Source: Squalus acanthias
Taxonomy: Eukaryota
Direction: 5' to 3'
NCBI GenBank assembly: GCA_030390025.1
Contig: CM059449.1
Coordinates: forward strand, 2,294,001-2,358,000
Length of the DNA: 64,000 nucleotides
The translations under genes were made by a program, and so were the position numbers. Under the pieces are notes generated by a model that did no database searches, had not been told where the DNA came from, and was given only the letters and a program-made list of their open reading frames with translations. Below are positions 2,986-56,198 of this stretch, in pieces; position 1 is the first letter of the stretch, and each line of letters begins with the position of its first letter.

Positions 2986-3043
2986 ATGGAGAATCGCTTA
3001 CTGGCGTCATTCCTATTGTTACAGATTCAGATTACAGCAGCAG
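2986..3043 (+). CDS. BTN-like gene 1, signal peptide exon ([19 protein letters not shown])
   Basis: Acceptor tttacag ends 2977; ATG in ACAATGG context; hydrophobic core; donor CAG|gtaag. Conserved in gene 2. Confidence 0.88.
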
Positions 3044-6000
3044 GTAAGAGACTGGATTAAAGGCATGAAGTCTGGATTATCTGTATAATGTGTGCTGTGA
3101 CAGTATTTAAATGCTATTCATTCTTCAGTTACAGGAGACTTCGAAGTGACCGGTGCAGACAGCCCAGTTCTAGGGACCGTGGGTAGTAGCGTCACGCTGA
3201 ACTGTCGGGTCACACCGAGCTTTGACCTTCTGAGTATGGAACTGGAATGGTTAAAAGCAGATACCCGAGAAACTGTAGTTTTAGTTATAAATGGACGCAA
3301 TCGTGCAAAGTCAAGCAACTACCATGGAAGGACTGAGCTCTTTATGGACAAATTGATTCAGGGAAATATCTCTGTCCATCTAAGCAATGTCCGTATCTCT
3401 GATGAGGGTAAATACAGATGCATCGTGAGCACCAGTTCCTGGGGACATGCAGGAGATGCAGAACTAACAGTAGCCGGTAGGTATTGATACAGAGAACTGA
3501 ATCTGTGAATATAATCACCAAAAATTATTCAGAAATTTACATCCCCGTGTAAAATGTCTGTTTAATTAATTTATAAACAGAGAATACCAACATTGATTCT
3601 TAACTGTTATTGCTGCTTCAGTTTGAGTACATGGAGTTAATGTTCCGTATTGTGATTGGATTGTGGAGGGAATGAAACCGTGCTCGATCCGTTCACTCTC
3701 ATTCTGAACAATCGGTCTCGGGAACACTGGGGATCTTCTACATCTCAATCTGTACAGTGCTCACTGTGGGTGTAGATTCACTGTAGAATGTGTCACTGGG
3801 ACTCTGCACGAACACTTTATCTCATGGCCTGAGATTCCCTCCTCCTGCTGTTCCCTCGATCACAAGACAATTATGGATGAGGAAGGCAGTTCGGGCCATT
3901 TTATTTTAACTAGAAAGACCCTAACTTCCCCATTGGACCTCCAATTGTTTCTTAAACCTCCATGACTCTGTCCAGAGTCCATTCCATGTGTTGATCACTC
4001 TTTGTTTGATGGTCTTGCTGTTACCAGTCTCACATTTACCTTTTACTAGTTTGAACCTGTGTTCACTTGTCCCACTCTCACAATTTAAAGTAATATTTCA
4101 GCTTTACCTTTTCCGTTCATTTAACTACCTATATCTACCTCGATAAGGTCACCTCTCAGAAGCCTCCTTTCCTGGTGCAAATCCCAGGTTTCTCCAGTCT
4201 TTTCCCGTCACTCAGACCCCTGACACTGGGGATGAGTCTGGTGGATCTTCTCCGATCTGCCTCCAGTGTTCAAATGTCTCCCTTTTTTCTCAATGGCCAG
4301 AACTGGACACAGTATTCAAGGTGGGCTCTGACCAGAGCACCGTGCAGTTTGATCGTGGCTTCCTCTGACTTGTAGTCTACTGTTTTTAGCCATTTAGTTT
4401 GGGAGGTTGGGGGAGAGAATGTTGCTCATTTTCCCTTGTGAATACTTCAAGGAAATGATAACTCGGAATATTTCCTATTTTGTGTTTGCCCCCAGTTCTG
4501 ATACTGTTTGAATCATTTATGGTTTTCACTGATTCTCTGACATTCCTGTCACTGCTGTAAGACTGAGGCTTATTTACTGTAATGTTTCACTTCAGCTGCT
4601 GTGCATTTTCCGAGACCTCTCCTGGCCCTTCTCATCACCTGCTGAACGTGTTCCTGCACATTCCTATATTCATCCCAGTGAACCCCTTCTCCTTTCTCCC
4701 AGCAGGATTTATAGCCATTTCTCCTCTTATTTCACTTCAATCTCTTTGTTAATCCATTGAGGGTCAAGTGTGTTTAGCCTGAGCTTCTGATTTCAGATCC
4801 TCACTGTGTTGGAGTCTGAGTCACCCACTGAGTCTGACTGTAACTCATTCATTCCCAGGACTGCAGAGCTGTCGAACTCCTGGCCTCCCTCAGCTTTCTC
4901 CTCCTACAATCTACGGCTTTTAAAAACTCAAGTGTGGCCTCCCCTGATCACAGCTTCATGATTTGCATCCTCTCCAGTCTGTTCTGTACCGTGGTGGAGG
5001 CCTCCTTCTGGGCCTTGGCCCTTCACACCCTTTTGGCAACAATATAAAAATGAGGCCTCCCAAAAAAAGCTTCAAATGATCTGGAGAAAGTAGAAAGAGA
5101 CAAATTCCAAACATTCACATTCTCCGTTATCTGCTGATGTCTCATGGGAGCAGTTTTCCAGCCTAAATATTGGGATTAACCAGGAAACATTGACACTTGT
5201 ACATTGAACCAGATGTGTAAATACCTTTTTAATACAGGAAAACTGGTTTTATAGAATAATAGAATCACACAGCACAGAAGGAGGCCATTCGGCCCATTGT
5301 GCCTGTGCCGGCTCTTTGAAAGTGCTATCCAATTAATCCCACTCCTCTACTCTTTCCCCCTAGCCCTGCAATCTTTTCCTTTTCAAGTATTTATCCAAAT
5401 CCATTTTGAAAGTTTCTATTGAATCTGCTTCCACCGCCCTTTCAGGCAGTGCATTCCAGAACATCATAACTCACTGTGTAAAAAAAGTTCTCCTCATTTC
5501 CCCTCTGTTATTTTGCCAATTATCTTTCTATCTGTGTCCTCTGGTAACTGACCCGCCAGCCAGTGCAAACAGTTTCTCCTGATTTACTCTAACAATACCC
5601 TTCATAATTTTGAACTCCTCAATCAAATCTCCCCATAACCATTTTTGGTCTAAGGAGAACAATCCCAGCTTCTCCAATCTCTCCAAATAACTGAAGTCCC
5701 TGATCCCTGGTGCCATTCTGGGAAATCTCCTCTGCACCCTCTCCAAGGCCTTGACATGTTTCCGAAAGTGTGATGCCCAGAATTGGCCACAATTTTCTAG
5801 CTGATGCCTAACCAGTGTTTTATAAAGGTTTAGCATAGCTTCCTTGCTTTTGTACTCTATGCCTCTAATTATAAAGCCAAGGGTCCCGTATGGTTTTTTA
5901 ACAGGCTTATCAGCTTGTCCTGCAACCCTCAAGGATTTGCGTATGTGAACCCCAGGTTTCTCTAATCCGGTACCCCCTTGAAAATTGTACCATTTTTTAA

Positions 6001-9000
6001 AAATTGCCTCTCCTCATTCATCCTTCCATAATGCATCACTTCACACATCTCTGTTTTAAATTGCACCTGCCATGTGACTGCCCATCTCACCAGTCTGTCG
6101 CTGTCCTCCTGAAGTCTTCTACTACCCTTCTCACTAGATTTCCGAGTTTTGTGTCCTCTCCAAACTTTGAAATTATGCCCTTTATACCCAAGTCCAGGTC
6201 ATTAATATAGTTCAAAAAGAGCAGTGGTCCCAACCCCGACCCCTGGGGGACATCACTGTATTCTTCCCTCCAGTCTCAAAAGCAACCGTTCACCACTACT
6301 GTCTGCTTTCCATTCCTTGGCCAATTTCATATCCATACAGCCCCTTCCCCTTTAATCCCATGAGCTTCAATTTTGCTAAGAAGTCTAACATGTGGTACTT
6401 TATCAAACGCCTTTTGAAATTCCATTTACACAGCATCAACTTCACTACCCTCATCAACCCTCTCCATCATTTCATCAAAGAACTTAATCAAGTTAGTCAG
6501 ATACGATTTGCCGGCTCTCATATTTTTCCAAGTGCCAAGTAATTGTGTCTCAAAGTTTCCCCACCACCGACGTTAGGCTGACTGGCCTGTAATTGCCAGG
6601 TTTTTCCTCTCCCCTTTTTTGAATGGGGTGAAACATCTGCAACCCTGCAGTCCTCGGGCACCTCTCCCATATCTAAGGAAGATTGGAAGATTGTGGCTAG
6701 AGCCTCCGCAATTTTCACCCTTCCCTCAGCAACTGAGGGTGCATCCCACCCGGACCGGGTGACTTTTCTACTTTGATCGCTGACAACCATTTATGAACTC
6801 TTTATTTATTTTTATCCTATCCAATATCGCTATTGCCTCCTCCTTTACTGCGACATTGGCAGCATCCTCCTCTCCAGTGAAGACAGATGCAAAGTACTCA
6901 TTTAGTAGCTCAGCCATGCCCTCTGCCTCCACAGGAAGATCTCCTTTTTGGTCCCTAATTGGCCCCACCCTTCTCTTGACTACCCTTTTTATAAAAGACT
7001 TCAGTGTTCTCTTTTCTATTATCTGCTAATCTATTCTCATACACTCTCTTTGCCCCTCTTATTTCCTTTTTCAGTTCTCCTCTGCACTTTCTGCATTCGG
7101 CTTGGTTCTCTACTGTATTAAGAACCTGACATTTATCACAAGCCTCCTGTTACTGTTTCAGTTTAACCTCAATATCTTTAGACATCCAGCAAGCTGTAGC
7201 TTTGGATGCCCTTGCGTTCGCCCTGATAAGAATGTGTCCAGTCTGTACCTGAACTAGCTCCTCCTTGAAGGCCTCCCACTGCTCATTTACTGTTTTACCT
7301 GCCATTCGTTGTCTCCAATCCACCTTGGCCAGACCCCTTTTCAGCTGACTGAAATGAACCCTCTTCCAGTTGGATATCTTCACTTTTGATTGTTCCTTGT
7401 CTCTTTCCCATTCTCAACCTAATCATATTGTTTCCATTACTGTAATTGGAACTGAATTGGTTCCAGTCACACACATCAGAATCTGAAATATAAATTTGTT
7501 AATATGCACAAATTAATGTTTCTGCCAGTGAGCATGTATTTGTAGTTTATTTTGAAAGTAAATGGATTATTACACTGAAATAAACATTATTTTCTCTGGT
7601 AAACCTTAACATTCTGTTCAGCGAAGAGCTGAGTGAATCTGTCTGGATATGGTAGCCTGGTGTTTATGTACCGTTATGCAATCCGTTCCAGAACAAAACC
7701 CTGTTAAAAGCCTCTCCTGAACCATCCTTTTCAATAATTACACACTGCATGGACCGTATTTATCCAATAGATGTCTTGGTAGAATAAAATAATATGCAGC
7801 TTATTTTCCATATTTGTAGTGTCTGGGAGTCAACCTGAGATCCATGTTGAAGGATTCCATGAGCGAGGAGGGAGTCTTGTGTGTAAATCCAGTGGATGGT
7901 ACCCGGCCCCTGAGGTATCCTGGAGATACACAGATGGACAGAACATTTCTGCACTGTCTAAAACCCTGAATACTACAGAGTCCAGTGGAGCTGTCAATGT
8001 CGAAAGTCACATCAACATCACAAAGGATCTTGGGGAAAGCTACTCCTGTCTGATAAGGAACAGATTGCTCTTCGAGGAAAGAGAAGGGATTATTGAGATA
8101 GCAGGTCAGTGACGAGCCCTCCTCAACAGAGGGTTTATGAAATATTCACATGAACACATTCATCAGGCTGATAGATTTATTGTTTGACATGTCAATGGTA
8201 TCTTAGTTCTACAACAAATAAGTTTGTTTATTTACAGATGAGTTTTTCCCTCAGGAGATGGGAGTTTCAGGATGGAGTGTGGCTTTCTGGATACTCACGG
8301 TTCTCACTGCTATTCTAATAATTGCCGCAGTTCTCTACTGGTTAGAACAATGGAACGGTGTTTTCTATACATGGAAAGAATTGAAAGGTAACATCTTACA
8401 AAAAATGTTTAAAATCTTGAATTGTGAAAACACTGAAATATACAGAAAATCATTTTTTCTTATAATTGTCCAGAATAAGAGGATCCATAGAAACATAGAA
8501 GATAGGAGCAGGAGTAGGCCATTCGGCCCCTCGAGCCTGCTCCGCCATTCAATGAGATCATGGCTGATCATCCAAACTCAGTACCCTGTCCCTGCCTTCT
8601 CCCCATATCCTTGATCCCTTTAGCCTTAAGAAATATATCTATCTCCTTCTTGAATATATTTAATGAATTGGCCTCAACTGCCTTCTGTGGTAGAGAATTC
8701 CACAGGTTCACCACTCTCTGGGTGAAGAAATTCCTCCTCATCTCTGTCCTAAATGGCTTACCCCTTATCTTTAGACTGTGACCTCTTGTTCTGGACTCAC
8801 CCGCCATCGGGAACATCCTTCCTGCATCCAGTCTGTCTAGCCCTGTTAGAATTTTATAAGTTTCAATGAGATCTCCTCTCATTCTTCTAAACTCCAGCGA
8901 GTATAAGCCCAATTGACCCAATCTCTCCTCATACGTCATTCCTGCCATCCCAGGTATCAGTCTGATGAATCTTCGCTGCACACCCTTCATGGAAAGAACA

Positions 9001-12000
9001 TCCTTCCTCAGATAAGGCGACCAAAACTGCACACAATACTCAAGGTGTGGTCTCACCAAGGCCCTGTACAGCTGCAGCAAGACATCCTTGTTCCTGTACT
9101 CAAACCCTCTCGCTACGAAGGCCAACATACCATTTGCCTTCTTAACCGCCTGCTGTACCTGCATGCTTAGCTTCAGCGACTGGTGCACAAGGACACCCAG
9201 ATCTCGTTGCACTTCCCCTTCTCCCAATCTATCGCAGTAACAGTGATTTAATATCACTGCGTTCCATTTCACTAAAGTACATCACAGTACAAACCATCGC
9301 TTACTGATCCGGGATTGGGAAAGCCTGCATTTGGCTGCAGAACTCTGAATTGCTGTTCCATATTCCAGTGGAGTTTCACAGTCTCTCTGTGCTGGATACC
9401 TCCAGCTCTACCTGCTTCACGCCACCTAACACACAGGAAAAAATCCTTACATGTGAACTTACAACAGGTTACATTTTAGATACACGTTTTCCATCATTTT
9501 GAAAAACTGATGCTTGCTGCACTAGAAATGCTACAAACAGAAACAGCCCTGAAATTGCTGTCAGTGACATTAGGAGGAATGGTTAACTGTGTCGTATGTA
9601 ATTCCTTCGTTTGCTATTTCAATTAAATTGAAACATATTTATTTAAGACTACTCATTCTCCTGCGGGCATTCCACATGTGAAGTCAAAACCAAAAGAAAT
9701 CTTCAGCAGGAGCGGGATTGGAGTGTGTCGGGGGGGGGTGGGGGTGGTGGCTGGGAGGGGATCGTGTAGTAAGTAATCAAACCAGGTCTTGTAGATTAAT
9801 CATAGAATGGTTACAGCACAGAAGGAGGCCATTCGGCCCGTCAAGCCCATGCTGGCTCTCTGCAAGAGCACTTCAGCTAGTCCCACTCCCCCCCTCTTTC
9901 CCCGTAGCCCTGCAATTTTTTTTCCTTCAGGTACTTATCCAACTCCCTTATGAAAGCCATGATTGAATCTGCCTCCACCACCCTTTCAGGCAGTGCATTC
10001 CAGATCATAATCAGTCGCTGTGCAAAAAAGGTTTTTCCTCATGTCGCCTTTGGTTCTTTTGCTAATCACCTTAAAATTGTGCCCTCTGGTTATCGACCCT
10101 TTCGCCAATGGGAACAGTTTCTCTCTATCTGCTCTGTCTAGACCCCTCATGATTTTGAGCACCTCTATCAAATCTCCTCTCAACCTTCTCTGCTCTAAGG
10201 AGAACAACCCCAGCTTCTCTAATCTATCCACGTAACTGAAATCCCTCATCCCTGGAATCATTCTCGTAAATCATTTCTGCACCCTCTCGAAGGCCTTCAC
10301 ATCCTTCCTAAAGTGCGGTGCCCAGAATTGCAGACAATACTCCAGTTGAGGCCGAACCAGTGTTTTATAAGGTTCATCATAACTCCCTTGCTTTTGTACT
10401 CTATACCTCTATTTGTGAAGCTCAAGATCCCGTATGCTTTTTTTAACTGCTTTCTCAATCTGCCCTGCCACCTTCAATGATTTGTGCACATATACCCCCA
10501 GGTCTCTCCGTTCATGCACCCCCTTTAGGATTGTACCGTTTAGTTTATATTGCCTCTCCTCATTCTTCCTACCAAAATGTATCACTTCGCACTATTAGAA
10601 GCATAGAAGATAGGAGCAGGAGTAGGCCATTCGGCCCCTCGAGCCTGCTCCGCCATTTAATGAGATCATGGCTGATCATCCAAACTCAGTACCCTGTCCC
10701 TGCTTTCTCCCCATATCCCTTGATCCCTTTAGCCTTAAGAAATATATCTATCTCCTTCTTGAATATATTTAATGAATTGGCCTCAACTGCCTTCTGTGGT
10801 AGAGAATTCCACAGGTTCACCACTCTCTGGGTGAAGAAATTCCTCCTCATCTCAGTCCTAAATGGCTTACCCCTTATCCTTAGACTGTGACCCCCCGCCA
10901 TCGCGAACATCCTTCCTGCATCTAGTCTGTCTTGTCCTGTTAGAATTTTATAAGTTTCAATGAGATCCCCTCTCATTCTTCTAAACTCTAGCGAATATAA
11001 GCCTAATTGACCCAATCTCTCTTCATACATCATTCCTGCCATCCCAGGTATCAGTCTGGTAAATCTTCGCTGCACTCCCTCCATGGCAAGAACATCCTTC
11101 CTCAGATAAGGCGACCAAAACTGCACACAATACTCAAGGTGTGGTCTCACCAAGGCCTTGTACAACTGCAGCAAGACATCCTTGCTCCTGTACTTTCCTG
11201 TGTTAAATTTCATCTGCCACGTGTCCGCCCATTCCACCAGCCTGTCTATATCTTCCTGAAGTCTATCACTATCCTCTACTATTCACTCTCTGTTTCTTGT
11301 CACTTAGCCAATTTTGTATCCATGCTGCCACTGTCTCTTTTATTCCATGGGCTTCAATGTTTTTGGCAAGCCTATTCTGTGGCTCTTTGTCAAACGCCTT
11401 TTGGAAGTCCATGTGCACCACATCCAACCGCATTGCCCTCACCGACACACTCTGATACCTCATCAAAAAACTCGATCAAGTTAGTTAAAATTATTTGCCT
11501 TTAACAAATCTGTGCTGGCTTTCCTTAATTAATTCACAGTTGTCTAAATGACTGTTAACTTTGTTCCTGATTATCGTTTCTAAAAGGTTCCCCACTACCG
11601 AGGTTAAACTGACTGGCCTGTAGTTGCTGGGTTTTTCCTTACACCCTTTTTTTGAACATGGGTGTAACATTTACAATTCTGCAGTCCTCCGGCACCACCC
11701 CCGTATCTAAGGAGATTTGGAAGATTATGGCCAGTAGCTCCGCGATTTCCTCCTCAACGTCCCTCAGCACCCTAGGATGCATCCCCTCCGGTCCTGGTGA
11801 CTTACCAACTTTAAGTACAGACAGCCTTTCTAGTACCTCCTCTATCAATTTTTATCTCATCCAGTATCTCCACGACCTCCTCTTTCACTATGACTTTGGC
11901 AGCATCTTCTTCCTTGGTGAAGACAGTTGCAAAGTACTCATTTACTACCTCAGCCATGCCCTCTGCCTCCATGCGTAGGTCTCCTTTTTGGTCCCTAATC

Positions 12001-24000: not shown

Positions 24001-27000
24001 GCACATAAGATATTGGGACAGGTAACCAAAAGCTTGGTCAAAGAGGTTTTAAGGAGCGTCTTTCAGGAGGAGAGAGAGGCGGAGAGGTTTAGGGAGGGAA
24101 TTCCAGAGCTTAGAGCCCAGGCAGCTGAAGGCACGGCCGCCAATGGTGGAGTGATTAAAATCGGGGCTGCGAAGGAGGCCAGAACTGGAGGAATGTAGAG
24201 ATCTCGGAGGATTATGGAGCTGGAGGAGGATACAGAGATTGGGAGGGTTGTAGGGCTGGAGGAGATAACAGAGATAAGGCGGGTTGTAGGGCTGGAGGAG
24301 ATAACCGAGATGGGGGGGCGGGGGGAGTAGGGTGGGGCCATGGAAGGATTTGAAGACAAGGATGTGAATTTTAAAGTTGAGGTGTTGCCAGACTGGGAGC
24401 CAATGTAGTCAGCGAGCGCAGGGGTGATGGGTGAACGGGACTTGGTGCGAGTTAGGACACGGGCAGCAGAGTTTTGGATGAGCTCAAGTTTACAGAGGGT
24501 GGGAGATGGGAGGCCGGCCAGGAGTGTGTTGGAATAGTCAGGTCTGGAGGTAACAAAGGCATGGATTTAGGATTTCAGCAGCCTATGAGCTGAGGCAGGG
24601 GCGGAGAAGGGTGATGTGATCACTCGCTATATAAGGACAAGTCTTCCTTTGTCCCATCCAAACACTGTCTGCTGTCTGAATTTGATTCTTCTCTTATTAA
24701 TGAAAGTTATTCCAAGTCCCATGAAAATCACTGAGACCAGTCAGGAAACTGGAGGTTGTTTCTAATGAAAATCTATTCTCTTCCAGATCTACAGAAGCAG
24801 CTAGAAGACTCAGGTAAGAAGATTTGTGAGAAAATCTCAGCTGTGGTTCCATGGCCCCTCCGTGCAGTGTGTAATTATTGAAAGGGATGATGTCCAGTAT
24901 CAGTGTAGCTGGATTGTATTTTGTCAATAAGTATTGTAATGAATTCTGGTGATATTTATCTGCTCTGTGTGATGTCTCCGCTGAACAGCATCTGTGCTGT
25001 AAGTTTTCCCGAAGGTTTTTACACAGGGTCACACACCATGAGCTGCTCCCTCCTGATCCACAATTACTGTACGACCTCGTTCCCACAGAATGGTCTTACT
25101 GACGGAGATAAGCATCTTCTCACAGTGAGTGGATCCGGCTTCTTTAAGGTTCCTGTCTAGAAGTGGACAGTCCCGAGTGTGGTGGATCCTGTGTGATGTG
25201 CAGCTCTCAGTGAGATATGTCAGTGGTGTCCGGGTCACTGTAAATAAATGACAATCATTGTGTCGCCTGGTTCTGTGATCCATTTATGCTCAGTATTTAC
25301 ACTTTATTATGTGACGGCGCCATTGATGTTATTTTAATCTGTTTTTCAGAGCGGGAAAGGCTTTGGATGTTTGCAGGTGAGAGACTTCAGATCCTGGGGC
25401 TGTGCCGGTTTCTATCTTGTGAAGTTCAGGTTCTGGTTTGTGCGGAGTGTTTAACATTCGTGGGGGAGCCCTGTCAATAACTAAAACATCAGCATTTGCA
25501 TAAGTCCTGTCTGAAACACCGTCTGTCTATAAATACTGCAGTGAGTGAGAGGGGACTGTGCCACAGGGGCAGGGTGGTAACTGATTCCGGACAGAGCTGT
25601 TGTCTATTTCTCCCTGTAACAGCACATGCCACTGAGATTAATATAAAGATTCATCTTTTTCTCAATTCTAAAGGCACAGCCTGAGGTCACACAATCCAGC
25701 TGGGGGTCGGGCCCAGCAGATTCAGTGAGATTCCTGCTCCCAGATCCCTGCTCCAGGCCTGGGCTGTTGGGCTTGAAGCTCCCTGTAGGGAGTTGGATGG
25801 ACAGAGCCCCTCTCAGTGCCTGATAGTCAGAGTCCCAGGCTGCAGGTTCAGCTCACTCCTGCTCACACTGCAGTCACAGTGTAGGTATTGAGCTTTGACA
25901 CTGTGATACTGTCTGAAATATGATGGGGGAGGAAGTGACTGATAAACATTCAGAGTCACACAGCACCTGTAGGAAACAGGGAAAACAGCCGGATGTCTAT
26001 ATGATGGAGATGTTTAAAATCATCTCAGCCTGTCCCTGGTGTGTGTGTATTTTACTTGTCCCTTTCCTACAATTATTGACTCTCAATCTGTTTGGAAGGG
26101 TGAGGGTCTGCTCCTGCTCGCGGGGTGGGGTTCAGGGTCAAAGTGGCTGAATGGGCCGATCCCCAGACAGGAGAGAGACCGAGAGAAATGGTGTAAAAGT
26201 GATTATTTGACTGGGTCCGGTCTGTGTGTGACCTACAGGTACACTGAGCCGGTCCTTACCGGGATTGCACCGGGTGTGAATGTAGAGTTGGGTCTGTGTG
26301 TGACCTGCAGGTACACTGAGCCGGTCCGTACCCGGATTGCACCGGGAGTGAATGTGGAGTTGGGTCTGTGTGTGACCTGCAGGTACACTGAGCCGGTCCG
26401 TACTGGGATTGCACCGGGTGTGAATGTGGAGTTGGGTCTGTGTGTGACCTGCAGGTACACTGAGCCGGTCCGTACCGGGATTGGACCGGGAGTGAATGTG
26501 GAGTTGGGTCTGTGTGATCTGCAGGTACACTGAGCCGGTCCGTACCGGGATTACACCAGGTGTGAATGTGGGTCTGCGAGCTGGGATCAGGCCGCTCCGG
26601 GTTTTTGCTCCTGATCGGTGATGGTTCGAGCTCCAGGTGCCGGACTCAGTTTTATAATTTTATTGCAGAGCCTGTGACTCTGGATCTGAACACAGCGAAT
26701 CCCCTGCTCATCATGTCTGAGGACCAGACCAGTGTGAGACTCGGAGAGGAACCTCAGGAGCTCCCTGACAACCCGAAGAGGTTTGATCCCTGGCCATATG
26801 TCCTGGGATCGGAGGGATTCACATCAGGGAGACACTACTGGGAGGTGGAGGTGGGGGACAAGACTGAGTGGTTTGTGGGAGTGACCCGTGAGTCTGCCGA
26901 GAGGAAAGGGTTTTTCGACCGGAAACCAGAGACCGGATACTGGATTGTGAGGCTGTCCCCCGGAAGTGTCTATTTTGCCTTCACCTCCCCCTCACCGACC

Positions 27001-27213
27001 CGCCTCACCCAGAGTGTGAAGCCCCGGAAGATCGGGGTGTACCTGGACTATGAGGGCGGACAGGTGTCATTTTACAATGCGGACAACATGTCCGAACTCT
27101 ACACTTTCACCCACACTTTCACTGAGAGAATCTTTCCCATCTTCTATCCGGGATCGAATGATGGCGGGAAAAACTCCGCCCCGCTGACAATCTGTGAGGT
27201 TAAAGGTCACTAA
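2986..27213 (+). CDS. Butyrophilin-like gene 1, complete 7-exon model join(2986-3043,3129-3476,7820-8104,8238-8387,24787-24813,25350-25376,26669-27213), 479 aa: SP-IgV-IgC-TM-coiled coil-B30.2
   Basis: All introns are GT-AG and phase 1. Exon lengths 58+348+285+150+27+27+545 = 1440 nt, open to TAA. The domain order is the canonical butyrophilin architecture. Confidence 0.88.
3129..3476 (+). CDS. BTN-like gene 1, IgV exon
   Basis: VTLNC...LEW...YHGRTELF...[20 protein letters not shown] is a B7/BTN V-set signature. In-frame tandem acceptors at 3129 and 3135; donor CCG|gtaggt. Confidence 0.95.
5251..7400 (-). mobile_element. Degenerate CR1 LINE in gene 1 intron 2
   Basis: Broken ORF2 fragments (5528-5932, 6768-6968, 7150-7383) and a CR1 3' tail. 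Confidence 0.85.
7820..8104 (+). CDS. BTN-like gene 1, IgC exon
   Basis: [10 protein letters not shown]...[16 protein letters not shown]...YSCLIRN is the BTN/B7 C-type domain; tttgtag acceptor, CAG|gtcagt donor. Confidence 0.95.
8238..8387 (+). CDS. BTN-like gene 1, transmembrane exon
   Basis: [50 protein letters not shown]; tttacag acceptor, AAG|gtaac donor; same 150-nt length in gene 2. Confidence 0.92.
8489..9232 (-). mobile_element. 5'-truncated CR1 LINE, gene 1-specific
   Basis: [13 protein letters not shown]...WNSLP ORF and (ttctatg) tail; absent at the paralogous site near 56292. Confidence 0.9.
9800..12245 (-). mobile_element. CR1 LINE with a nested younger CR1 at about 10594-11194
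   Basis: CR1 ORF2 fragments; the host sequence resumes after the nested copy. Confidence 0.88.
12905..14835 (-). mobile_element. CR1 LINE with a nested + strand CR1 (about 14072-14740)
   Basis: [12 protein letters not shown] motif on the minus strand; [12 protein letters not shown] and 3' tail on the plus strand. Confidence 0.85.
14850..18350 (+). mobile_element. Non-LTR retrotransposon (CR1/L2-related family) with a nested gene 1-specific CR1 at about 16411-17862
   Basis: RT peptides [22 protein letters not shown] and PQGSVLGP. The nested CR1 is flanked by ttgc and is absent near 59400. Confidence 0.85.
18800..19010 (+). mobile_element. PIF/Harbinger transposase (HARBI1-like) remnant
   Basis: [40 protein letters not shown] matches the C-terminal DDE region of Harbinger nucleases; frameshifted. 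Paralogous copy at about 60360-60560. Confidence 0.75.
19700..20545. mobile_element. CR1 fragments in both orientations, with a gene 1-specific SINE at about 20187-20400
   Basis: [10 protein letters not shown] fragment. The SINE is flanked by an aaagaa duplication and is absent near 61720. Confidence 0.7.
20740..21600 (+). mobile_element. CR1 LINE fragments
   Basis: A CR1 3' end and ORF 20972-21352 ([13 protein letters not shown]). Confidence 0.8.
21600..23315 (-). mobile_element. Non-LTR retrotransposon, APE endonuclease plus start of RT (same family as 14850-18350)
   Basis: [29 protein letters not shown] and KAMGPDNIP motifs. Confidence 0.85.
23900..24620 (-). mobile_element. L2-type LINE 3' portion containing about 2-3 copies of the 36-bp motif
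   Basis: (ttg)n tail on the minus strand and L2-like 3' region; [10 protein letters not shown] repeats in ORF 24063-24359. Confidence 0.65.
24787..24813 (+). CDS. BTN-like gene 1, coiled-coil micro-exon (DLQKQLEDS)
   Basis: 27 nt, phase 1-1, ctcttccag acceptor, CAG|gtaag donor, heptad-like peptide. BTN genes typically carry 21-27-nt heptad exons here. Confidence 0.8.
25350..25376 (+). CDS. BTN-like gene 1, micro-exon before B30.2 (ERERLWMFA)
   Basis: 27 nt, phase 1-1, gtttttcag acceptor, CAG|gtgag donor. Confidence 0.8.
26218..26575 (+). repeat. 72-bp minisatellite, about 5 copies, in the last intron of gene 1
   Basis: Unit gggtctgtgtgtgacctgcaggtacactgagccggtccgtaccgggattgcaccgggtgtgaatgtggagtt. 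Confidence 0.95.
26669..27213 (+). CDS. BTN-like gene 1, terminal B30.2 (PRY/SPRY) exon
   Basis: [11 protein letters not shown]...PDNPKRFD...[14 protein letters not shown]...[16 protein letters not shown] motifs; ttttattgcag acceptor; TAA at 27211-27213. Confidence 0.95.
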
Positions 27214-27289
27214 CAGTAATGGGTCTGTTTCCATCATTTTACCTCCAATTTCAGTTTCTCATTCCATTTCCTCCCGGGTGTTTCTGTGT

Positions 27290-27295
27290 AATAAA
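27290..27295 (+). terminator. Candidate polyadenylation signal of gene 1
   Basis: AATAAA about 77 nt after the stop codon. Confidence 0.55.
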
Positions 27296-32080: not shown

Positions 32081-33139
32081 GAAAAGCAGAGTGTGCGAGT
32101 GTTTTCTTTCATTGACTGTTTTACCTCCTTTTGTTATTGAATGGTGGTAGGTGTTTGTTACTAAATATCCTTGTGATGTACATTTACCCGTATTGTGAGT
32201 GTATGTAGGGCATTTTCTACTAGAATTAGTCCATGTGGCTAAAGCGGTGTCACCATTGCCACACCTAGCGGCCAGACAGCAATTTCTATTGGACAACACT
32301 ATTCTATACAAAGCAGTACTAACGAATCATACAGTATAACTTTCCGTCTGTGGCTACTTCACCTGATCTCTGGAAAACAACAGCCTTCAAGCATAATGGT
32401 TCCTGAATTGGATCTAAACTTGAAGGGGAAGAAACTGCAGGGATATGGGAAAAGAGCGGGGAGTGGGACTAACTGGATTGCTCTTCAAAAGAGCTGGCGC
32501 AGACTCGATGGGCCGAGTGGCCTCCTTCCGTGCTGTACTATTCTATGATTCCACGATAGTTTCCTGGGTTACCCCTTTCCCCTTTCTTGTACTTACAAAC
32601 AAATCCTTTATAATCCACACTTTATCTTCACTGGTGGAATAATGTTTAACCCACTTTCAGAGCTGCCTTTCCTCTCCACACATCACTGTTTTGTAACACA
32701 AGTCCGTTTCTTTCAGAGGTGCTGTTCACACATTAGTCACGAAAGATAACTGGCAGTTTCTAAACATTAACATCACACTGGTTAGTGATCAAAAGATTAA
32801 TGAGTGGATTTCTTACCTGCAGAGTTTGTAATCCTTTTCCATTCTAGAAATGTAAAATCGAATGGTTATTTTCTAAACTATTATAAACACCACGGTCATT
32901 CGTATTAATTGCACAGTTTTGGGTCATCAGTTCATTAGAATGAGAAATCTGTAAACCATTACTCACTGATGCTGTGACCGTTAACTTAATTTCCTTTTTA
33001 ATTTTACATCTTGTATTTAGAGATCAAGGGCAGAATGTGTCACTTTTGACAAGAACTCAATCTTATTACTTTTTTTACTTAACTGTCATCAATGTGAACA
33101 GGATAAACTGCAGAGAAATAATGTTGCAACAGGAGTAGA

Positions 33140-33760: not shown

Positions 33761-34829
33761 TCAGGAAACTCGGGGGTGGGGTGTCTGAAGCACAAGCACT
33801 CTTGGTAAAAGAGACGGTGAGGGACGGTAACAGGATGTAACTATGGTAGTAGCTAATTATATATAGAGAGATAATAGGGTGGAGACCATTAAAAATGAAC
33901 CAACAACAGAATATGTCTGGTAAATTGAAGTGTGTATAATGGGGTTGCACAGAATGAAAAGAAGTGTAAACACTTATCACAATCACTAGTCAATGATTAA
34001 TTAAATAACATGCCCAATACCTTGTTGAAATGTCCTTTCCCCAGCTGAAATGTAAAAATGTCCAACTATATAAAAATCTTACCTGATATTTTAATTTTTG
34101 TCTTCAGCCCTACAAAAAAGACACAATTTAGAATTACATGTCAAGTGAATAATATTTACTGGCAGTATTTGTTTACCAATGTGGTATATTCTTCTGTGTG
34201 GACACTGGAGTCTCTCCATTTCGAGGTCCCTCGATTAATATTATCTGATACAGTCAAAGATTGTGCAGTTCATGTATATTATGAGTGGTGTAATGTGTAT
34301 TTTCAGGCACGGACACTGGCCATATGCTTTATCAAGTGCTGGGTGATGTATTCAAAGAGAAAAGGACAATGCATTTTATCAGAGAATTTTCTTGGTTCTG
34401 TTACTTCATTTTTTTTTAATTGAGAAACCTGTGTGATGGATCAAAGCGCAATAGTGTGGGACACCAGGAAGGCAGAAACAGTAGAAGAATACCAGGAAAA
34501 ACTGCTTAAGGGACACCATGCTGGGATTTTCAATGCTGGGAGATTCTGGTAAAGAAAAGTATTACAGAAGTGAGGAGGTCCTGGGAAAGAATGAGATAAT
34601 GAGACCGTGCAATGAGTCTTGATTTACAAAGATGCAGGATGATAAGTATTGTGTAGGACAGCATGTGTTCATCTAAGGAAGAAATAAAGAAGCTCAGAGC
34701 AGCGCAGAACATAGAATTATTGATAGAGGCGAGAGACCGAGACCAACACTGTAAACTAGAGAAGAGACAGATTGAATATCAGACTTTTTTACTTGTACCT
34801 TTCCCTGGTGTAAGAAGATCCTCCATATA

Positions 34830-36875: not shown

Positions 36876-36912
36876 TTCCTCCTCCCCTCCCCCCTCCTCC
36901 TCCCCTCCCCCC

Positions 36913-37412: not shown

Positions 37413-37954
37413 CCCTTCTTCCCCCCCCCCTCCCTTCTTCCCCCCCCCACCTCCTCCTTCCATGCAAATAACAGGTTGGCTGCCAAGGACTGAAATGTAA
37501 ATTTTATAATAAGAAAATTTCATACAACAAATGGTAATGATCTCAGGATGCATTTATCCTGCAACTTCTGCTGAAACTAAAACACTATTTTGTAGATGAG
37601 TATGCGACACATTATCATTTTTTTAGGGGGGGAACAGAGGGGAGATGAGGGGAGAATAAATTTTGCACCAGTTAAAAGGAAGGATGTCAACATTAGTTAC
37701 AGGAACATGTTTTCAAATTTTGTCAAATATAGGATCATCTGTGGAGGAAGGTTCGCAGCCTCGGACAGCACCATTTCCCACACCAGCCTTCGTTTACCCT
37801 AATTATTGGCAAATTCAGAGGACATTTCTGCTGTGAGTCCATACACACTACATAGAACTCTTACAGCGAGCTGACAAAGAGAAGCAGAGAGCTTCATTCA
37901 TCAGTCTGGATTTCAACCTGGAGATTAGAGGGAATAAAAGAAGAGACTTGTATA

Positions 37955-39515: not shown

Positions 39516-39979
39516 GTAATTACCTGAATTTTTACATCATTGAGTCGAGCTTCTCCAGGTACAAGAAGTGACATCCTATAATTATGTCATACAACATGAA
39601 AAAAGACAGTGAAGCTACTGTTAAAGAACACAACCTGTATAGAATGTCAAAATGTAGAAACATTACCGAGAAAGAGAGATTACTCACCAGATACTGGACC
39701 ACAAACAAGGAACAGACCGAGAAGGAGAGTTCCACACTCCATTTTCATCACTCTGCAAATTCAAAATAAAATGCAATTATTTGAGTGAATTATCTCAGTA
39801 CATTCTCCACAAGCTGGATAAAATCTGACTGGGAATCCGACTGAAGATTATATGGGATTGCTTGGATGTAAATGTCATTCTCAGGTGTCCATACCACAAC
39901 CCACCACAGGACACCCACGGTCCATCAGCCCTGGCTCTGCTCCACAATTTCTCAGACATGAACTCACTCTGTTGCTGGG

Positions 39980-43645: not shown

Positions 43646-43647
43646 GG

Positions 43648-45313: not shown

Positions 45314-45371
45314 ATGGAGAATCGCCTACTGGCGTCATTCCTATTGTTACAGATACAGATTACAGCAGCAG
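45314..45371 (+). CDS. BTN-like gene 2, signal peptide exon
   Basis: Same peptide as gene 1 ([19 protein letters not shown]); donor CAG|gtaag. Confidence 0.88.
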
Positions 45372-45456: not shown

Positions 45457-45804
45457 TTACAGGAGACTTCGAAGTGACCGGTGCAGACAGCCCAGTACTA
45501 GTGACCGTGGGTAGTAGCATCACGCTGAACTGTCAGGTCACAAAGAGCTTTGACCCTCTGAGTATGGAACTGGAATGGTTAAAAGCAGATACCCTTGAAA
45601 CTGTAGTTTTAATTAAAAATGGAATCAATCGTGCAAAGTCAATCAACTATCATGGAAGGACTGAGCTCTTTACGGACAAATTTGATCAGGGAAATATCTC
45701 TCTCCGTCTAAGCAATGTCCGTATCTCCGATGAGGGTATCTACAGATGCCTCGTGAGCTCCAGTTCTTGGGGACAGGCAGGAGATGCAGAACTAACAGTA
45801 GCCA
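45457..45804 (+). CDS. BTN-like gene 2, IgV exon
   Basis: Open paralogue of 3129-3476 with both Cys and the Trp intact; donor CCA|gtaggt. Confidence 0.93.
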
Positions 45805-49845: not shown

Positions 49846-50949
49846 AAAGTCCCCTCTCAGAAGCCTCCTTTCCAGGTGCAAATCCCAGGTTTCTCCAGTC
49901 TTTTCCCGTCACTCAGACCCCTGACACTGGGGATGAGTCTGGTGGATCTTCTCCGATCTGCCTCCAGTGTTCAAATGTCGCCCTTGTTTCTCAATGGCCA
50001 GAACTGGACACTGTATTCAAGGTGGGCTCTGACCAGAGCACCATGCAGTTTGATCGTGGCTTCCTCTGACTTGTCGGCTACTGTTTTTATCCATTTAGTT
50101 CGGGGGTCGGGGGAGAGAATGTTGCTCATGTTCCCTTATGAATACTTCAAGGACATGATGATTCAGAATATTTCCTATTTTGTGCTTGCCCCCAGTTCTG
50201 ATATTGTTTGAATCATTTATGGTTTTCACCGATTCTTTGACATTCCTGCCACTGCTGTAGGACTGAGGTTTTTTTACTGTAATGTTTCACTTCAGCTGCT
50301 GTGTATATTCCGAGACCTTTCCTGGCCCTTCTCATCACCTGCTGAACGTGTTCCTGCACGTTCCTATAGTCATCCCAGTGAACCCCTTCTCCTTTCTCCC
50401 AGCAGGATTTATAGCCATTTCTCCTCTTATTTCACTTCAATCTCTTTGTTAATCCATTGAGGATCAAGTGTGTTTAGCCTGAGCGGATTTCAGATCCTCA
50501 CCGTGTTGGAGTCCGAGTCACCCACTGAGTCTGACTGTAACTCATTCTTTCCCAGGACTGCAGAGCTGTGGAACTCCTGGCCTCCCTCCGCTTTCTCCTC
50601 CTCCTACAATCTACGGTTTTTAAAAACTCAAGTGTGGCCTCCCCTGATCACAGCTTCATAATTTGCATCCTCTCTAGTCTGTTCTGTACCGTGGTGGAGG
50701 CCTCCTGTCTGGGCCTTGGCCCTTCACACCCATTCGGCAACAATATCAAAGTGAGGCCTCCCAAAAAAAGCTTCAGATGATCTGGAGAAAGTAGAAAGAG
50801 AGACATTCCAAACATTCACATTCTCCGTTAACTGCTGATGCCTGATGGGAACAGTTTTCCGGCCTAAATATAGGGATTAACCAGGAAACATTGACACTTG
50901 TGCATTGAACCAGATGTGTAAATATCTTTTTAATACAGGAAAACTGGTT

Positions 50950-51735
50950 TTATAGAATAATAGAATCACACAGCACAGAAGGAGGCCATTCGGCCCATTG
51001 TGCCTGTGCCTACTCTCTGAAAGTGCTATCCAATTAATCCCACTCCCCTGCTCTTTCCCCATAGCTCTGCAATCTTTTCCTTTTCAAGTATTTATCCAAA
51101 TCCATTTTGAAAGTTTCTACTGAATCTGCTTCCACCGTCCTTTCAGGCAGTGCATTCCAGAACATCATAACTCACTGTGTAAAAAAAAAAAAAAATTCTC
51201 CTAATGTTTCCCTCTGTTATTTTGCCAATTACCTTTCTATCTGTGTCCTCTGGTTGCTGACCCACCAGCCAGTGCAAACAGTTTCTCCTGACTTACTCTA
51301 ACAATACCCTTCATAATTTTGAACTCCTTGATCAAATCTCCCCATAACCTTTTTTGGTCTAAGGAGAACAATCCCAGCTTCTCCAGTCTCTCCAAATAAC
51401 TGAAGTCCTGATCCCTGGTGCCATTCTAGGAAATCTCCTCTGCACCCTCTCCAAGGCCTTGACATGTTTCCTAAAGTGTGATGCCCAAATTGGCCACAAT
51501 TTTCCAGCTGATGCCTAACCAGTGTTTTATAAAGGTTTAGCATGGCTTCCTTGCTTTTGTACTCTATCCCTCTAATTATAAAGCCAAGAGTCCCGTATGG
51601 TTTTTTAACAGGCTTATCAGCTTGTCCTGCAACCCTCAAGGATTTGCGTATGTGAACCCCAGGTTTCTCTAATCTGGTACCCCCTTGAAAATTGTACCAT
51701 TTTTAAAAAATTGCCTCTCCTCATTCATCCTTCCA
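50950..51735 (-). mobile_element. CR1 3' part, paralogous to 5251-6028
   Basis: Colinear with the CR1 in gene 1 intron 2. Confidence 0.85.
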
Positions 51736-51981
51736 GTCACACACATCAGAATCTGAAATATAAAAGTTTGTTAATACGCACAGATTAATGTTTCTGCCAG
51801 TGAGCATGAATTTGTAGTTTATTGTGAAAGTAAATGGATTATTCCACTGAAATAAACATTATTTTCTCTGGTAAACCGTAACATTCTGTTCAACGAAGAG
51901 AGGAGTGAATCTGTCTGGATATGGTAGCCTGGTGTTTATGTGCTGGTCTGGTAACCAGAGGTTGATAGTTCAAATCCCCCG

Positions 51982-53426
51982 TGGGGATGGCCTTAGCAAG
52001 GTGTTCGTCGTCATCGATGACATGTTGAAGGCTGCGAAGAACATGGCGTAGTTTTTCCGCTCCGGGGAAGTACTGGACGACGTAGGGTACTCTGTTGGTT
52101 GTGTCCCGTGTTCGTCTTCTGAGGAGGTCTATGCGGTTTTTCGCTGTGGCCCGTCGGAACTGTCGATCGACGAGTCGAGCGTCATATCCCGTTCTTACGA
52201 GGGCGTCTTTCAGTGTCCGTAGGTGTCCATCGCGTTCCTCCTCGTCTGAGCAGATCCTGTGTATTCGCAGGGCTTGTCCATAGGGGATGGCTTCTTTAAC
52301 GTGGTTAGGGTGGAAGCTGGAGAAGTGGAGCATCGTGAGGTTGTCCGTGGGCTTGCGGTAGCTTGAAGTGCTGAGGCGTCCGTCTTTGATGGAGATTCGT
52401 GTGTCCAAGAATGAAACCGATTCTGAGGAGTAGTCCATGGTGAGTTTGATGGTGGGATGGAACCTGTTGATGCTATCGTGTAGTCCTTTCAGTGATCCTT
52501 CGCCGTGGGTCCAAAGGAAGAAGATGTCGTCGATGTATCTGGTGTACAGCGTTGGTTGGAGGTCCTGTGCAGCGAAGAAGTCTTGCTCGAACTTGTGCAT
52601 GAAGATGTTGGCATATTGGGGTGCGAATTTGGTCCCCATGGCTGTTCCGTGTGTTTGGGTAAAAAAATGGTTGTCGAAGGTGAAGACATTGTGGTCAAGG
52701 ATGAAGCGGATGAGTTGTAGGATGGCGTCCGGAGATTGGCTGTTGTTGGTGTTGAGTACTGAGGCTGTCGCAGTGATGCCGTCATTGTGGGGGATATTGG
52801 TGTAGAGTGCCGATACGTCCATTGTGACGAGGAGTGTTCCTGGTTCAACTGGTCCATGAGTGCTGAGTTTCTGCAAGAAGTCTGTAGTGTCGCGACAGAA
52901 GCTGGGGGTTCCCTGTACGATGGGTTTCAGGATGCCCTCGACGTACCCAGAGAGGTTCTCACACAGGGTTCCGTTGCCTGATACGATAGGACGTCCGGGT
53001 GTGTTGGCTTTGTGTATCTTTGGGAGGCAGTAAAAGTCTCCTACGCGGGGAGTACGTGGGATGAGAGCGCGTAGGATGTTTTGAAGGTCTGGATCGAAGG
53101 TCTTGATCAGTCTATTGAGTTGGCGGGTGTGTTCTTTGGTCGGATCTGCGGGTAGCACAAAGGCTAACACAAGAACCTACACAGATTGACAGGATATGCA
53201 GCCAGCAGGTGGTTTGACACGTTGGACCCCCTGGGACACATCTCATTGTCTTGGCTATGCTCTTTGATGTAGGAAAGATTTGAATATATTTTGTCTGTGT
53301 TTAAATTGTGAATTCTGGGAGATTCTCTCACTGCTAAACTTACCTGACGAAGGAGCGAACTGCTCCGAAAGCTTGTAAAATTAAATAAATCTGTTGGACT
53401 ATAACCTGGTGTTGTGCGACTTCTCA
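51982..53426 (-). mobile_element. Young Penelope-like element: open RT ORF (minus) with an inverted pseudo-LTR (plus, about 53157-53426)
   Basis: About 390 stop-free codons with LPKIHK..GRPIVS, MDVSALYTNI, GTAMG, RYIDD and FLD; CpG-rich; truncated before GIY-YIG. Confidence 0.93.
53340..53378 (+). ncRNA. Minimal type I hammerhead ribozyme in the Penelope pseudo-LTR
   Basis: TTAC-CTGACGA-A-GGAGC-GAACT-GCTCC-GAAA-GC-T-T-GTAA: core, perfect stem II, stem I TTAC/GTAA, palindromic AGCT stem III. Confidence 0.75.
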
Positions 53427-55015
53427 TTTTTATAAAGGTTTAGCATAGCTTCCTTGCTTTTGTACTCTATGCCTCTAATTATAAAGCCAAGGGTCCCGTA
53501 TGGTTTTTTAACAGGCTTATCAGCTTGTCCTGCAACCCTCAAGGATTTGCGTATGTGAACCCCAGGTTTCTCTAATCCGGTACCCCCTTGAAAATTGTAC
53601 CATTTTTTAAAAATTGCCTCTCCTCATTCATCCTTCCATAATGCATCACTTCACACTTCTCTGTTTTAAATTGCACCTGCCATGTGACTGCCCATCTCAC
53701 CAGTCTGTCGCTGTCCTCCTGAAGTCTTCTACTATCCTTCTCACTAGATTTCCGAGTTTTGTGTCCTCTCCAAACTTTGAAATTATGCCCTTTATACCCA
53801 AGTCCAGGTCATTAATATAGTTCAAAAAGAGCAGTGGTCCCAACCCCGACCCCTGGGGGACACCACTGTATTCTTCCCTCCAGTCTCAAAAGCAACCGTT
53901 CACCACTACTGTCTGCTTTCCATTCCTTGGCCAATTTCATATCCATACAGCCCCTTCCCCTTTAATCCCATGAGCTTCAATTTTGCTAAGAAGTCTAACA
54001 TGTGGTACTTTATCAAACGCCTTTTGAAATTCCATTTACACAGCATCAACTTCACTACCCTCATCAACCCTCTCCATCATTTCATCAAAGAACTTAATCA
54101 AGTTAGTCAGATACGATTTGCCGGCTCTCCTTTATTAACCCATATTTTTCCAAGTGCCAAGTAATTGTGTCTCAAAGTTTCCCCACCACCGACGTTAGGC
54201 TGACTGGCCTGTAATTGCCAGGTTTTTCCTCTCCCCTTTTTTGAATGGGGTGAAACATCTGCAACCCTGCAGTCCTCGGGCACCTCTCCCATATCTAAGG
54301 AGGATTGGAAGATTGTGGCTAGAGCCTCCGCAATTTTCACCCTTCCCTCAGCAACTGAGGGTGCATCCCACCCGGACCGGGTGACTTTTCTACTTTGATC
54401 GCTGACAACCATTTATGAACTCTTTATTTATTTTTATCCTATCCAATATCGCTATTGCCTCCTCCTTTACATTGGCAGCATCCTCCTCTCCAATGAAGAC
54501 AGATGCAAAGTACTCATTTAGTAGCTCAGCCATGCCCTCTGCCTCCACAGGAAGATCTCCTTTTTGGTCCCTAATTGGCCCCACCCTTCTCTTGACTACC
54601 CTTTTTATAAAAGACTTCAGTGTTCTCTTTTCTATTATCTGCTAATCTATTCTCATACACTCTCTTTGCCCCTCTTATTTCCTTTTTCAGTTCTCCTCTG
54701 CACTTTCTGTATTCGGCTTGGTTCTCTACTGTATTAAGAACCTGACATTTATCACAAGCCTCCTGTTACTGTTTCAGTTTAACCTCAATATCTTTAGACA
54801 TCCAGCAAGCTGTAGCTTTGGATGCCCTTGCGTTCGCCCTGATAGGAATGTGTCCAGTCTGTACCTGAACTAGCTCCTCCTTGAAGGCCTCCCACTGCTC
54901 ATTTACTGTTTTACCTGCCATTCGTTGTCTCCAATCCACCTTGGCCAGACCCCTTTTCAGCTGACTGAAATGAACCCTCTTCCAGTTGGGTATCTTCACT
55001 TTTGATTGTTCCTTG
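53427..55015 (-). mobile_element. CR1 segment nearly identical to 5817-7400
   Basis: Direct comparison with gene 1 intron 2. Confidence 0.88.
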
Positions 55016-55615
55016 TCTCTTTCCCATTCTCAACCTAATCATATTGTTTCCATTACTGTAATTGGAACTGAATTGGTTCCAGTCACACACATCAGAATCT
55101 GAAATATAAAAGTTTGTTAATACGCACAGATTAATGTTTCTGCCAGTGAGCATGAATTTGTAGTTTATTGTGAAAGTAAATGGATTATTCCACTGAAATA
55201 AACATTATTTTCTCTGGTAAACCGTAACATTCTGTTCAACGAAGAGAGGAGTGAATCTGTCTGGATATGGTAGCCTGGTGTTTATGTGCTGGTCTGGTAA
55301 CCAGAGGTTGATAGTTCAAATCCCCCGCCCCCCTCTACATGACAGTTATTGAAACTGAATTCAATAAATCTATTAGTTTGTGGGTCAGGACCAGCACAAA
55401 CGTCCCACTGCAATTATCCCAATTTAGATCCAGTACCACATCTGTACCAACTGATGGCAGAGGTCAAGAACAGCGATCCGTTCTGGAACAAAACCCTGTT
55501 AAAAATCCTCTGCTGAACCATCCCTTTCAATAATTACACACTGCATGGACAATATTTATCCAACAGATGTATTAGTAGAATAAAAAATTATGCAGGTTAT
55601 TTTCCATATTTGTAG

Positions 55616-55900
55616 TGTCTGGGAGTCAACCTGAGATCCATGTTGAAGGATTCCATGAGCGAGGGGGGAGTCTTGTGTGTAAATCCAGTGGATGGTACCC
55701 GGCCCCTGAGGTATCCTGGAGATACACAGATGGACCGGACATTTCTGCACCGTCTAAAATCCTGAATACTACAGAGTCCAGCGGAGCTGTCAATATCGAA
55801 AGTCACATGAACATCACAAAGGATCTTGGGGAAAGCTACTCCTGTCTGATAAGGAACAGATTGCTCTTCGAGGAAAGAGAAGGGATTATTGAGATAGCAG
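55616..55900 (+). CDS. BTN-like gene 2, IgC exon
   Basis: Open 285-nt paralogue of 7820-8104 with intact splice sites. Confidence 0.93.
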
Positions 55901-56048
55901 GTCAGTGACGAGCCCTCCTGAACAGAGGGTTGATGACATATTTATGAAATATTCACATGAACACATTCACCAGTCTGATAGATTTATTGTTTGACATGTC
56001 AATGGTATCTTAGTTCTACAAGAAATAAGTTTGTTTGTTTATTTACAG

Positions 56049-56198
56049 ATGAGTTTTTCCCTCAGGAGATGGGAGTTTCAGGATGGAGTGTGGCTTTCTG
56101 GATATTCACGCTTCTCAATGCTATTCTAATAATTGCAGCTCTTCTCTACTGGTTTGAACGATGGAATGGTGTTTTCTATACATGGAAAGAATTGAAAG
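56049..56198 (+). CDS. BTN-like gene 2, transmembrane exon (gene 3'-incomplete in this window)
   Basis: [50 protein letters not shown]; intact splice sites. Confidence 0.9.

Follow-up and report, generated by a model that had tools for sequence, protein, structure and literature searches.

A butyrophilin-like family expanded in Squalus acanthias carries a diversifying, TRIM-like B30.2 exon and adjoins an IgV-less gene

The window analyzed here, a stretch of 64,000 nucleotides from Squalus acanthias (C26:2294001-2358000, C26 being contig CM059449.1 of a 3.7-Gb genome), contains A1, a shark butyrophilin-like gene that belongs to a lineage-specific expansion; exons resembling class I of the major histocompatibility complex (MHC) lie on the same contig. 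With a probability that we put at about 0.5, the expanded shark butyrophilins are varied membrane-anchored sensors whose B30.2 domain diversifies and is likely traded with TRIM genes, likely assisted by P, a gene without IgV on the opposite strand. This reading is preferred because B30.2 diversifies fast, is encoded by nearly the same exon as in the TRIM neighbours and is present in many copies beside a shortened partner; the evidence points to the cytoplasmic end of the protein, not to IgV. In its accessible text, Marenco et al. (2026; PMC12841164) reported butyrophilins in four cartilaginous fish, with lineage-specific duplication and an MHC-chromosome location in three, so the basic claim of a shark butyrophilin cluster was already known; the same text neither counts copies nor analyses selection, and it mentions no TRIM exchange and no partner without IgV. 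New here are the at least 19 close copies, 14 of them open, with a diversifying B30.2, the nesting of this B30.2 among neighbouring TRIM exons, and the IgV-less head-to-head gene P. Reports of an IgV-less butyrophilin, a head-to-head pair or BTN-TRIM exon exchange in sharks were sought in the open-licence literature, subscription papers being outside the scope, and none was found.

Copies were identified by an IgV search of the genome in which 150 of 428 candidates were scored, all copy counts being lower bounds. At least 113 matches were obtained, of which at least 19 were close copies at 79-100% identity (the A copies): at least 16, lying in either orientation, along C26 from 0.08 to 2.53 Mb, and at least three on contig C3359. 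Five of the 19 are broken and 14 open, and single-base breaks may be assembly errors. The original prediction had described a tandem array, possibly an expanding lineage-specific cluster, and had proposed a scan for more copies. The expansion was confirmed and the scan was productive; the array does hold several copies, but the description understated their number, their two orientations and their spread over two contigs.

Selection was then measured by domain among the 14 open copies (91 pairs, which are non-independent). Mean amino acid identity was 95% in IgC, 86% in IgV and 79% in B30.2. The pN/pS ratio of B30.2 was 1.75 (codon bootstrap 95% interval 1.27-2.53) with a maximum-likelihood (ML) omega of 1.97, and the corresponding values were 0.87 and 1.07 for IgV, and 0.86 and 0.71 for IgC. 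Similarly, dN exceeded dS in 88 of the 91 pairs for B30.2, in 31 for IgV and in 39 for IgC. The B30.2 sequences were aligned to alpaca BTN3 and human BTN3A3 in order to place the pocket positions. The columns that vary most (40, 42, 66, 68, 83, 102, 104, and 159) hold 4-8 residues each, the mean being 1.9, and correspond to the region of the BTN3 pocket near W350-H351-Y352 and W391. Eight residue states were observed at the W350 position, four at Y352, three at W391 and four to five facing the basic pocket residues (K393, R412, R418 and R469). The basic residues of alpaca BTN3 face mostly Asp, aromatic or small residues in the A copies, and the His351 position is occupied by Trp in all 14 open copies. 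The B30.2 exon of A is under diversifying selection, with the variation on the ligand pocket. Trp350, His351, Tyr352 and Trp391 are named as pocket residues in the accessible text of PMC10533412 and PMC7348870. The basic, His351-bearing pocket of a BTN3-type phosphoantigen sensor is lacking in A, and its absence together with the variability of the pocket argues against phosphoantigen sensing.

The same exon was compared with 19 TRIM-type B30.2 exons, of which three were shown to end RING-B-box genes (C26 2.74, 2.95, and 4.24 Mb) and 16 are TRIM-type by sequence only. Among the matches listed, the B30.2 of A1 shares 80-82% identity with the best non-BTN exons of C26, compared with 72-81% for its paralogues and 70% for the orthologue in Heterodontus, and DNA identity between A and TRIM-type exons reaches 91%. 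This homology starts at the first codon of the exon, in no case within the intron before it, and extends either to the stop or to about 250 nt inside the 3' untranslated region. The dS between A and TRIM-type exons was 0.036-0.217 (mean 0.107), compared with 0.071 among A copies, and the exon nearest to A1 is TRIM-type (p 0.091), not a paralogue (0.102). No same-strand RING or B-box exon was found within 30 kb upstream of the two TRIM-type exons that have the lowest dS to A1 (C26 17.65 and 17.80 Mb). The eight sites diagnostic for A versus TRIM are all confined to the first 89 nt of 540, and at sites 70-89 TRIM states are found in several A copies, a pattern to be expected of conversion tracts that dwindle toward an intron that is not shared. 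Variability also correlates between A and TRIM-type exons (Spearman 0.52).

In a B30.2 protein tree of 40 rows, the A exons fall in the TRIM (A33/NF7-like) clade, nested within the shark TRIMs (97/98) and away from other shark and bony-vertebrate butyrophilins, and a split between BTN and TRIM exons was rejected by the approximately unbiased (AU) test (p=0.016). The same mixing is indicated by protein sequences from two other sharks. The B30.2 of the Hemiscyllium butyrophilin XP_060706374.1, which belongs to another ectodomain lineage, groups with carpet-shark TRIMs (100/99); its ectodomain orthologue is the gene at C26 5.55 Mb, to which IgV and IgC are 63% identical and B30.2 only 45% (AU p=0.043). 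Likewise, the B30.2 of a second Heterodontus protein of A type groups with Heterodontus TRIMs (94/94).

Gene P is a third gene type that the original prediction had overlooked. It shows the butyrophilin features signal peptide, BTN-type IgC, transmembrane (TM) segment, two 27-nt exons and B30.2, but lacks IgV, and one intact copy has an open frame of 360 amino acids (C26:2394079-2378252). No IgV was found between its signal-peptide and IgC exons in any of six copies, across gap-free spans of 1.0-3.2 kb; a weak IgV-like match in one P intron (E=0.011, 29%) was rejected, as it has no IgV motifs. The W-x-P-x-P loop motif seen in other BTN IgC domains is missing from the IgC of P (PF22705, 41.1 bits). 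Orthologues, both without IgV and 70-90% identical by domain, were found in Heterodontus (347 amino acids) and Pristiophorus (366 amino acids), so that the open IgV-less frame is kept in three shark lineages. The three form a single clade in the IgC and B30.2 trees (100/100), where the P B30.2 groups with that of Pristiophorus (99/93). In Heterodontus, the contigs that encode the A and P proteins are of equal length. The IgV-less paddlefish model XP_041090230.1 (Polyodon) was considered as a relative and rejected, since it falls outside the P group in the IgC tree; it is an unrelated butyrophilin model, from independent loss or annotation artefact. As no further orthologue was seen in a search of 50%-representative sequences, and the Polyodon model lies outside the group, P was not traced beyond sharks.

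Five of the six P IgC copies face an A gene head-to-head at 1.8-15 kb, and a P leader exon faces eight of the 16 A genes on C26. Pairing of BTN3A1 with BTN3A2 depends on IgC, according to the accessible text of PMC5798315, which makes P a natural candidate for a common subunit of A; the genomic pairing is circumstantial evidence for such a heteromer. The heteromeric pair that had been envisaged therefore has a candidate partner, although not the paralogue then named (A2), which is frameshifted. A predicted complex of A IgC with P IgC scored 0.37, against 0.43 for one control, and gives no verdict either way, and an AlphaFold model of Heterodontus P built with no alignment was unusable (predicted local distance difference test score 40.8).

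Taken as a mechanism, gene conversion within a chromosome arm rich in B30.2 exons would swap this exon between the A copies and the TRIM genes nearby, and each A copy would sense a different intracellular ligand from its position in the membrane, presumably one derived from pathogens or stress. Ligand binding might be relayed inside-out to the ectodomain, as in BTN3A1/2A1, toward a putative lymphocyte receptor, and P would pair with A through IgC and control its delivery to the surface as BTN3A2 does for BTN3A1. A broader version, which we regard as doubtful, is a diversified sensor array in sharks. Its transmembrane butyrophilins would repeatedly acquire B30.2 pockets, selected by pathogens, from the adjacent TRIM genes, would associate with an ancient subunit that lacks IgV and is expressed from the same bidirectional promoter, and would signal the presence of many different cytosolic ligands to lymphocytes; phosphoantigen sensing in mammals would then be one fixed remnant of a general inside-out system.

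Several observations weigh against these proposals. The omega of IgV, at about 1, is also high and the ectodomain is not strongly conserved; moreover, dN/dS can be inflated by recombination or conversion, and the A pairs are not independent. Monophyly of the A exons was not rejected by the AU test (p=0.31 for DNA, p=0.19 for protein with the Heterodontus A), 13 of 14 A exons form a single DNA clade (94/96), and a test of the longest shared tract was marginal (p=0.031). Because of this unrejected monophyly and the marginal tract test, an old single capture of B30.2 followed by slow change may explain the exon in place of repeated exchange. The second AU test suffers from long branches, and the sequences of the Hemiscyllium and second Heterodontus proteins come from automatic annotation and are possibly chimeric. 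P is poorly retained and decays faster than A: only two of the five C26 copies with IgC are intact in all exons, one of these two faces a broken A gene, and no P adjoins A1 itself. Finally, joints from TM through the micro-exons to B30.2 were absent among the joints listed for the sequencing runs described below.

Among the alternatives, the one that survives best is an ordinary birth-and-death cluster. Segmental duplication would have multiplied a B7-like co-regulatory butyrophilin within an unstable arm rich in TRIM genes, B30.2 would owe its similarity and variability passively to conversion by TRIM donors that are themselves under selection, and P would merely be carried along in the duplicated cassette. 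The five broken A copies and the decay of most P copies fit this explanation, as do the near-neutral omega values of IgV and IgC and the hundreds of B30.2 and B-box exons that share the contig. However, dN exceeds dS more steadily in the A copies (88 of 91 pairs) than in the TRIM-type exons (72 of 171), the frames of 14 of the 19 A copies are open, and P has kept its open frame in three shark lineages. We consider it rather doubtful.

An ancient ligand system for gamma-delta T-cell receptors (TCRs), as originally proposed, was judged unlikely. Here IgV would engage germline V-gamma regions at HV4, and the copies would diversify to select T-cell subsets, like BTNL3/8 or Btnl1/6. The canonical butyrophilin architecture of A1, the MHC class I-like exons on the contig, the candidate heteromer partner P and the differences among IgV copies are all in keeping with it, and mammalian Btnl heteromers are combinatorial (PMC7387338, accessible text). 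Nevertheless, the signal of selection lies in B30.2 and not in IgV, His351 is missing from every open copy, and butyrophilins persist in squamates that lack gamma-delta T cells (accessible text of PMC12841164). This system and the sensor reading are not mutually exclusive, since the ectodomain could still bind a TCR.

The structure of A1 agrees with the complete gene of the original prediction (Table 1). Its seven coding exons are joined by phase-1 GT-AG introns into a single open frame of 477 amino acids, or 479 if the upstream IgV acceptor is used; the downstream acceptor is likelier, because the AG 6 nt upstream of it is mutated in six of the 19 copies. The plan is that of a butyrophilin (signal peptide, IgV, BTN-type IgC, single TM segment, short heptad micro-exons and terminal B30.2, all phase 1), and its N-terminus is not the RING-B-box-coiled coil of TRIM proteins. 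All Pfam scores were above the cut-off, the PDB relatives of the IgV are B7-H3, MOG, BTN1A1 and BTN3A, and the named proteins closest to the genes of the window come from sharks. A1 also shares an IgC clade with Heterodontus XP_067865250.1 (100/99).

Table 1. Features in and beside the window (window positions unless C26 is given)
Feature	Position	Strand	Remarks
A1 signal-peptide exon	2986..3043	+	ATG, hydrophobic leader, phase-1 GT donor
A1 IgV exon	3135..3476	+	alternative acceptor 3129; Pfam V-set 48.6 bits
A1 IgC exon	7820..8104	+	PF22705 (BTN-type IgC) 79.8 bits; spliced to TM exon
A1 TM exon	8238..8387	+	hydrophobic stretch; GT..AG joint 8104/8238; Heterodontus orthologue 84% identical
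A1 27-nt juxtamembrane micro-exon 1	24787..24813	+	AG/GT, phase 1; 18/19 copies (19th outside stretch examined)
A1 27-nt juxtamembrane micro-exon 2	25350..25376	+	AG/GT, phase 1; 19/19 copies
A1 B30.2 (PRY-SPRY) terminal exon, TRIM (A33/NF7-like) type	26669..27213	+	Pfam PRY 82.4, SPRY 85.7 bits
P relic (IgV-less butyrophilin-like), whole extent	39748-32817	-
P relic micro-exon 2	32817..32843	-	99% match to intact P copy
P relic micro-exon 1	34083..34109	-	97% match to intact P copy
P relic IgC exon, first 34 nt	37456..37489	-	runs into C-rich stretch and N gap 36913-37412
P relic signal-peptide exon	39688..39748	-	97% match to intact P copy; faces A2 head-to-head at 5.5 kb
A2 signal-peptide exon	45314..45371	+
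A2 IgV exon	45463..45804	+	83% amino acid identity to A1
A2 IgC exon	55616..55900	+	94% amino acid identity to A1
A2 TM exon	56049..56198	+
A2 micro-exons and frameshifted B30.2, beyond window	C26:2359640-2363625

Splicing was assessed with contigs of four sequencing runs, whose RNA nature was deduced solely from a GT..AG joint, none being recorded as RNA. The intron between IgC and TM is skipped at GT..AG in all four of the runs aligned, and one run contig spans both exons, its match ending exactly at the TM donor; a run contig also crosses from micro-exon 1 to micro-exon 2 unspliced. The spliced contigs diverge from A1 at about 2.5% of positions, and therefore show that the family is spliced, not necessarily the A1 copy. 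Thus, the seven-exon model agreed with the reads at the IgC-TM joint, while its TM-to-B30.2 splice, absent among the joints listed, rests on conservation: in 18 of 19 copies TM is followed, across orthologous introns, by the micro-exons and B30.2 in unchanged order and frame, and the junctions of A1 recur in the model of its Heterodontus orthologue. That the B30.2 exon is part of a separate gene and the butyrophilin ends after TM, as the repeat-filled intron of 16.4 kb before the micro-exons, the unlisted joint and the likeness to TRIM exons might suggest, is highly improbable given this conserved order and these junctions, an A1 TM exon that is free of stops and closes with a phase-1 donor, the failure of RING or B-box matches to appear between these exons, and the presence of 25-68% of sampled words around A1's own B30.2 exon in the runs that splice IgC to TM.

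The paralogue A2 starts at 45314, 42,328 bp downstream of A1, with which it is colinear at 92-98% DNA identity. Its position and its four open exons within the window were as predicted. However, its B30.2 exon (C26:2363088-2363625, 5 kb past the window end) has lost 7 bp relative to the nearest sister copy, and a stop at codon 388 falls about halfway through B30.2. Since this deletion stops the frame, A2 is not of full architecture, contrary to the original claim, and is a truncated form or a pseudogene. The relic of P in the window lacks about 4.4 kb of its sister copy (the rest of IgC and the TM exon), which is unaccounted for at the N gap, and its B30.2 exon was absent from the sequenced 27213-30813. 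A minisatellite of period 36 (76 copies) lies between the P and A2 leaders at 40985-43650. Two others flank the B30.2 exon of A1: one of period 72 (4.9 copies) at 26219-26571, just upstream and common to paralogues, and one of period 32 (15 copies) at 27495-27980. Reverse-transcriptase fragments of long interspersed elements fill the introns (8476-22400 and 46800-64000); several of the fragments are common to A1 and A2 at 92-98% and therefore predate the duplication.

Elsewhere on C26, a second BTN-like family was found at 6.0-7.6 Mb (at least 14 IgV and 16 IgC matches); this expansion, which extends to C2738, has its own B30.2 clade, unrelated to the TRIM-type exon. Single divergent BTN-like genes lie at 18 kb and at 1.57, 5.41, 5.49, 5.55, and 31.58 Mb. 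After the A gene at 2399165, whose own IgC carries a stop, there is a duplicated IgC-TM-micro-exons-B30.2 block with neither signal peptide nor IgV (C26:2421197-2430347). Further groups of B7/BTN-like IgV exons were detected at C16:52.1-52.7 Mb, at C4:43.4-43.9 Mb and on C3806; their identity is 30-40%, and IgC matches to A were lacking there. At least 150 B-box and at least 150 B30.2 matches were obtained. Back-to-back inverted B30.2 exon pairs, 0.7-3 kb apart, occur at C26:5114467-5116224 and at 4.63, 4.94, and 5.06 Mb. A switchable cassette near 5.1 Mb was considered and set aside: one member of the examined pair is frameshifted and the pair straddles an assembly gap, so inverted pairs are possibly scaffolding artefacts.

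As for MHC surroundings, 15 MHC class I alpha-2 matches were found on C26 at 30.7-38.4 Mb, 28 Mb from the A cluster; inspection of the open reading frames of one such locus did not identify its lineage. The strongest class I and class II alpha matches sit on unplaced contigs (class I on C3751, C3487, C812, and C3328, one of which also carries class II alpha and one a match to a proteasome subunit). Searches for PBX and proteasome genes gave no match on C26, and one for MHC class II beta gave none anywhere.

These results bear on the role of butyrophilins prior to phosphoantigen sensing in mammals and on what they detect in animals other than primates. The hypervariable and probably TRIM-traded pocket amounts to 14 natural pocket variants on a near-constant scaffold, and the idea of butyrophilins as general inside-out sensors is therefore directly testable. 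Additionally, an IgC-only butyrophilin conserved across distant sharks separates the pairing function of IgC from TCR binding. If only the plain reading holds, the locus is one further shark butyrophilin cluster.

Among known systems, the direct orthologue of A1 is Heterodontus XP_067865250.1, annotated as butyrophilin subfamily 1 member A1-like (IgV 70%, IgC 83%, TM 84%, B30.2 70%). The P orthologue XP_067865452.1 is annotated as ERMAP-like, and P does share one extracellular Ig domain, TM and B30.2 with ERMAP. However, ERMAP keeps IgV and is not known to have an IgC, the reverse of P, whose single Ig domain is a BTN-type IgC. Human BTN3A1, BTN3A2 and BTN2A1 have the same exon plan as A, and B30.2 is the intracellular sensor of the BTN3 system; in A, by contrast, the pocket His351 is replaced by an invariant Trp among hypervariable neighbouring positions, and B30.2 groups with shark TRIMs, not with bony-vertebrate butyrophilins. 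The BTN3 system likewise forms IgC-dependent heteromers with a truncated partner (PMC5798315, accessible text), although BTN3A2 lacks B30.2 whereas P lacks IgV. The variability of the A B30.2 resembles that of the finTRIM and TRIM5 loops under selection (accessible text of PMC2657112). In teleosts, the accessible text of van der Aa et al. (2009; PMC2657112) describes a similarly expanded family, with B30.2 loops positively selected and shuffled among immune families; in that case cytosolic TRIM and NLR genes are the partners of the exchange, whereas in sharks the recipient would be a transmembrane protein of the Ig superfamily.

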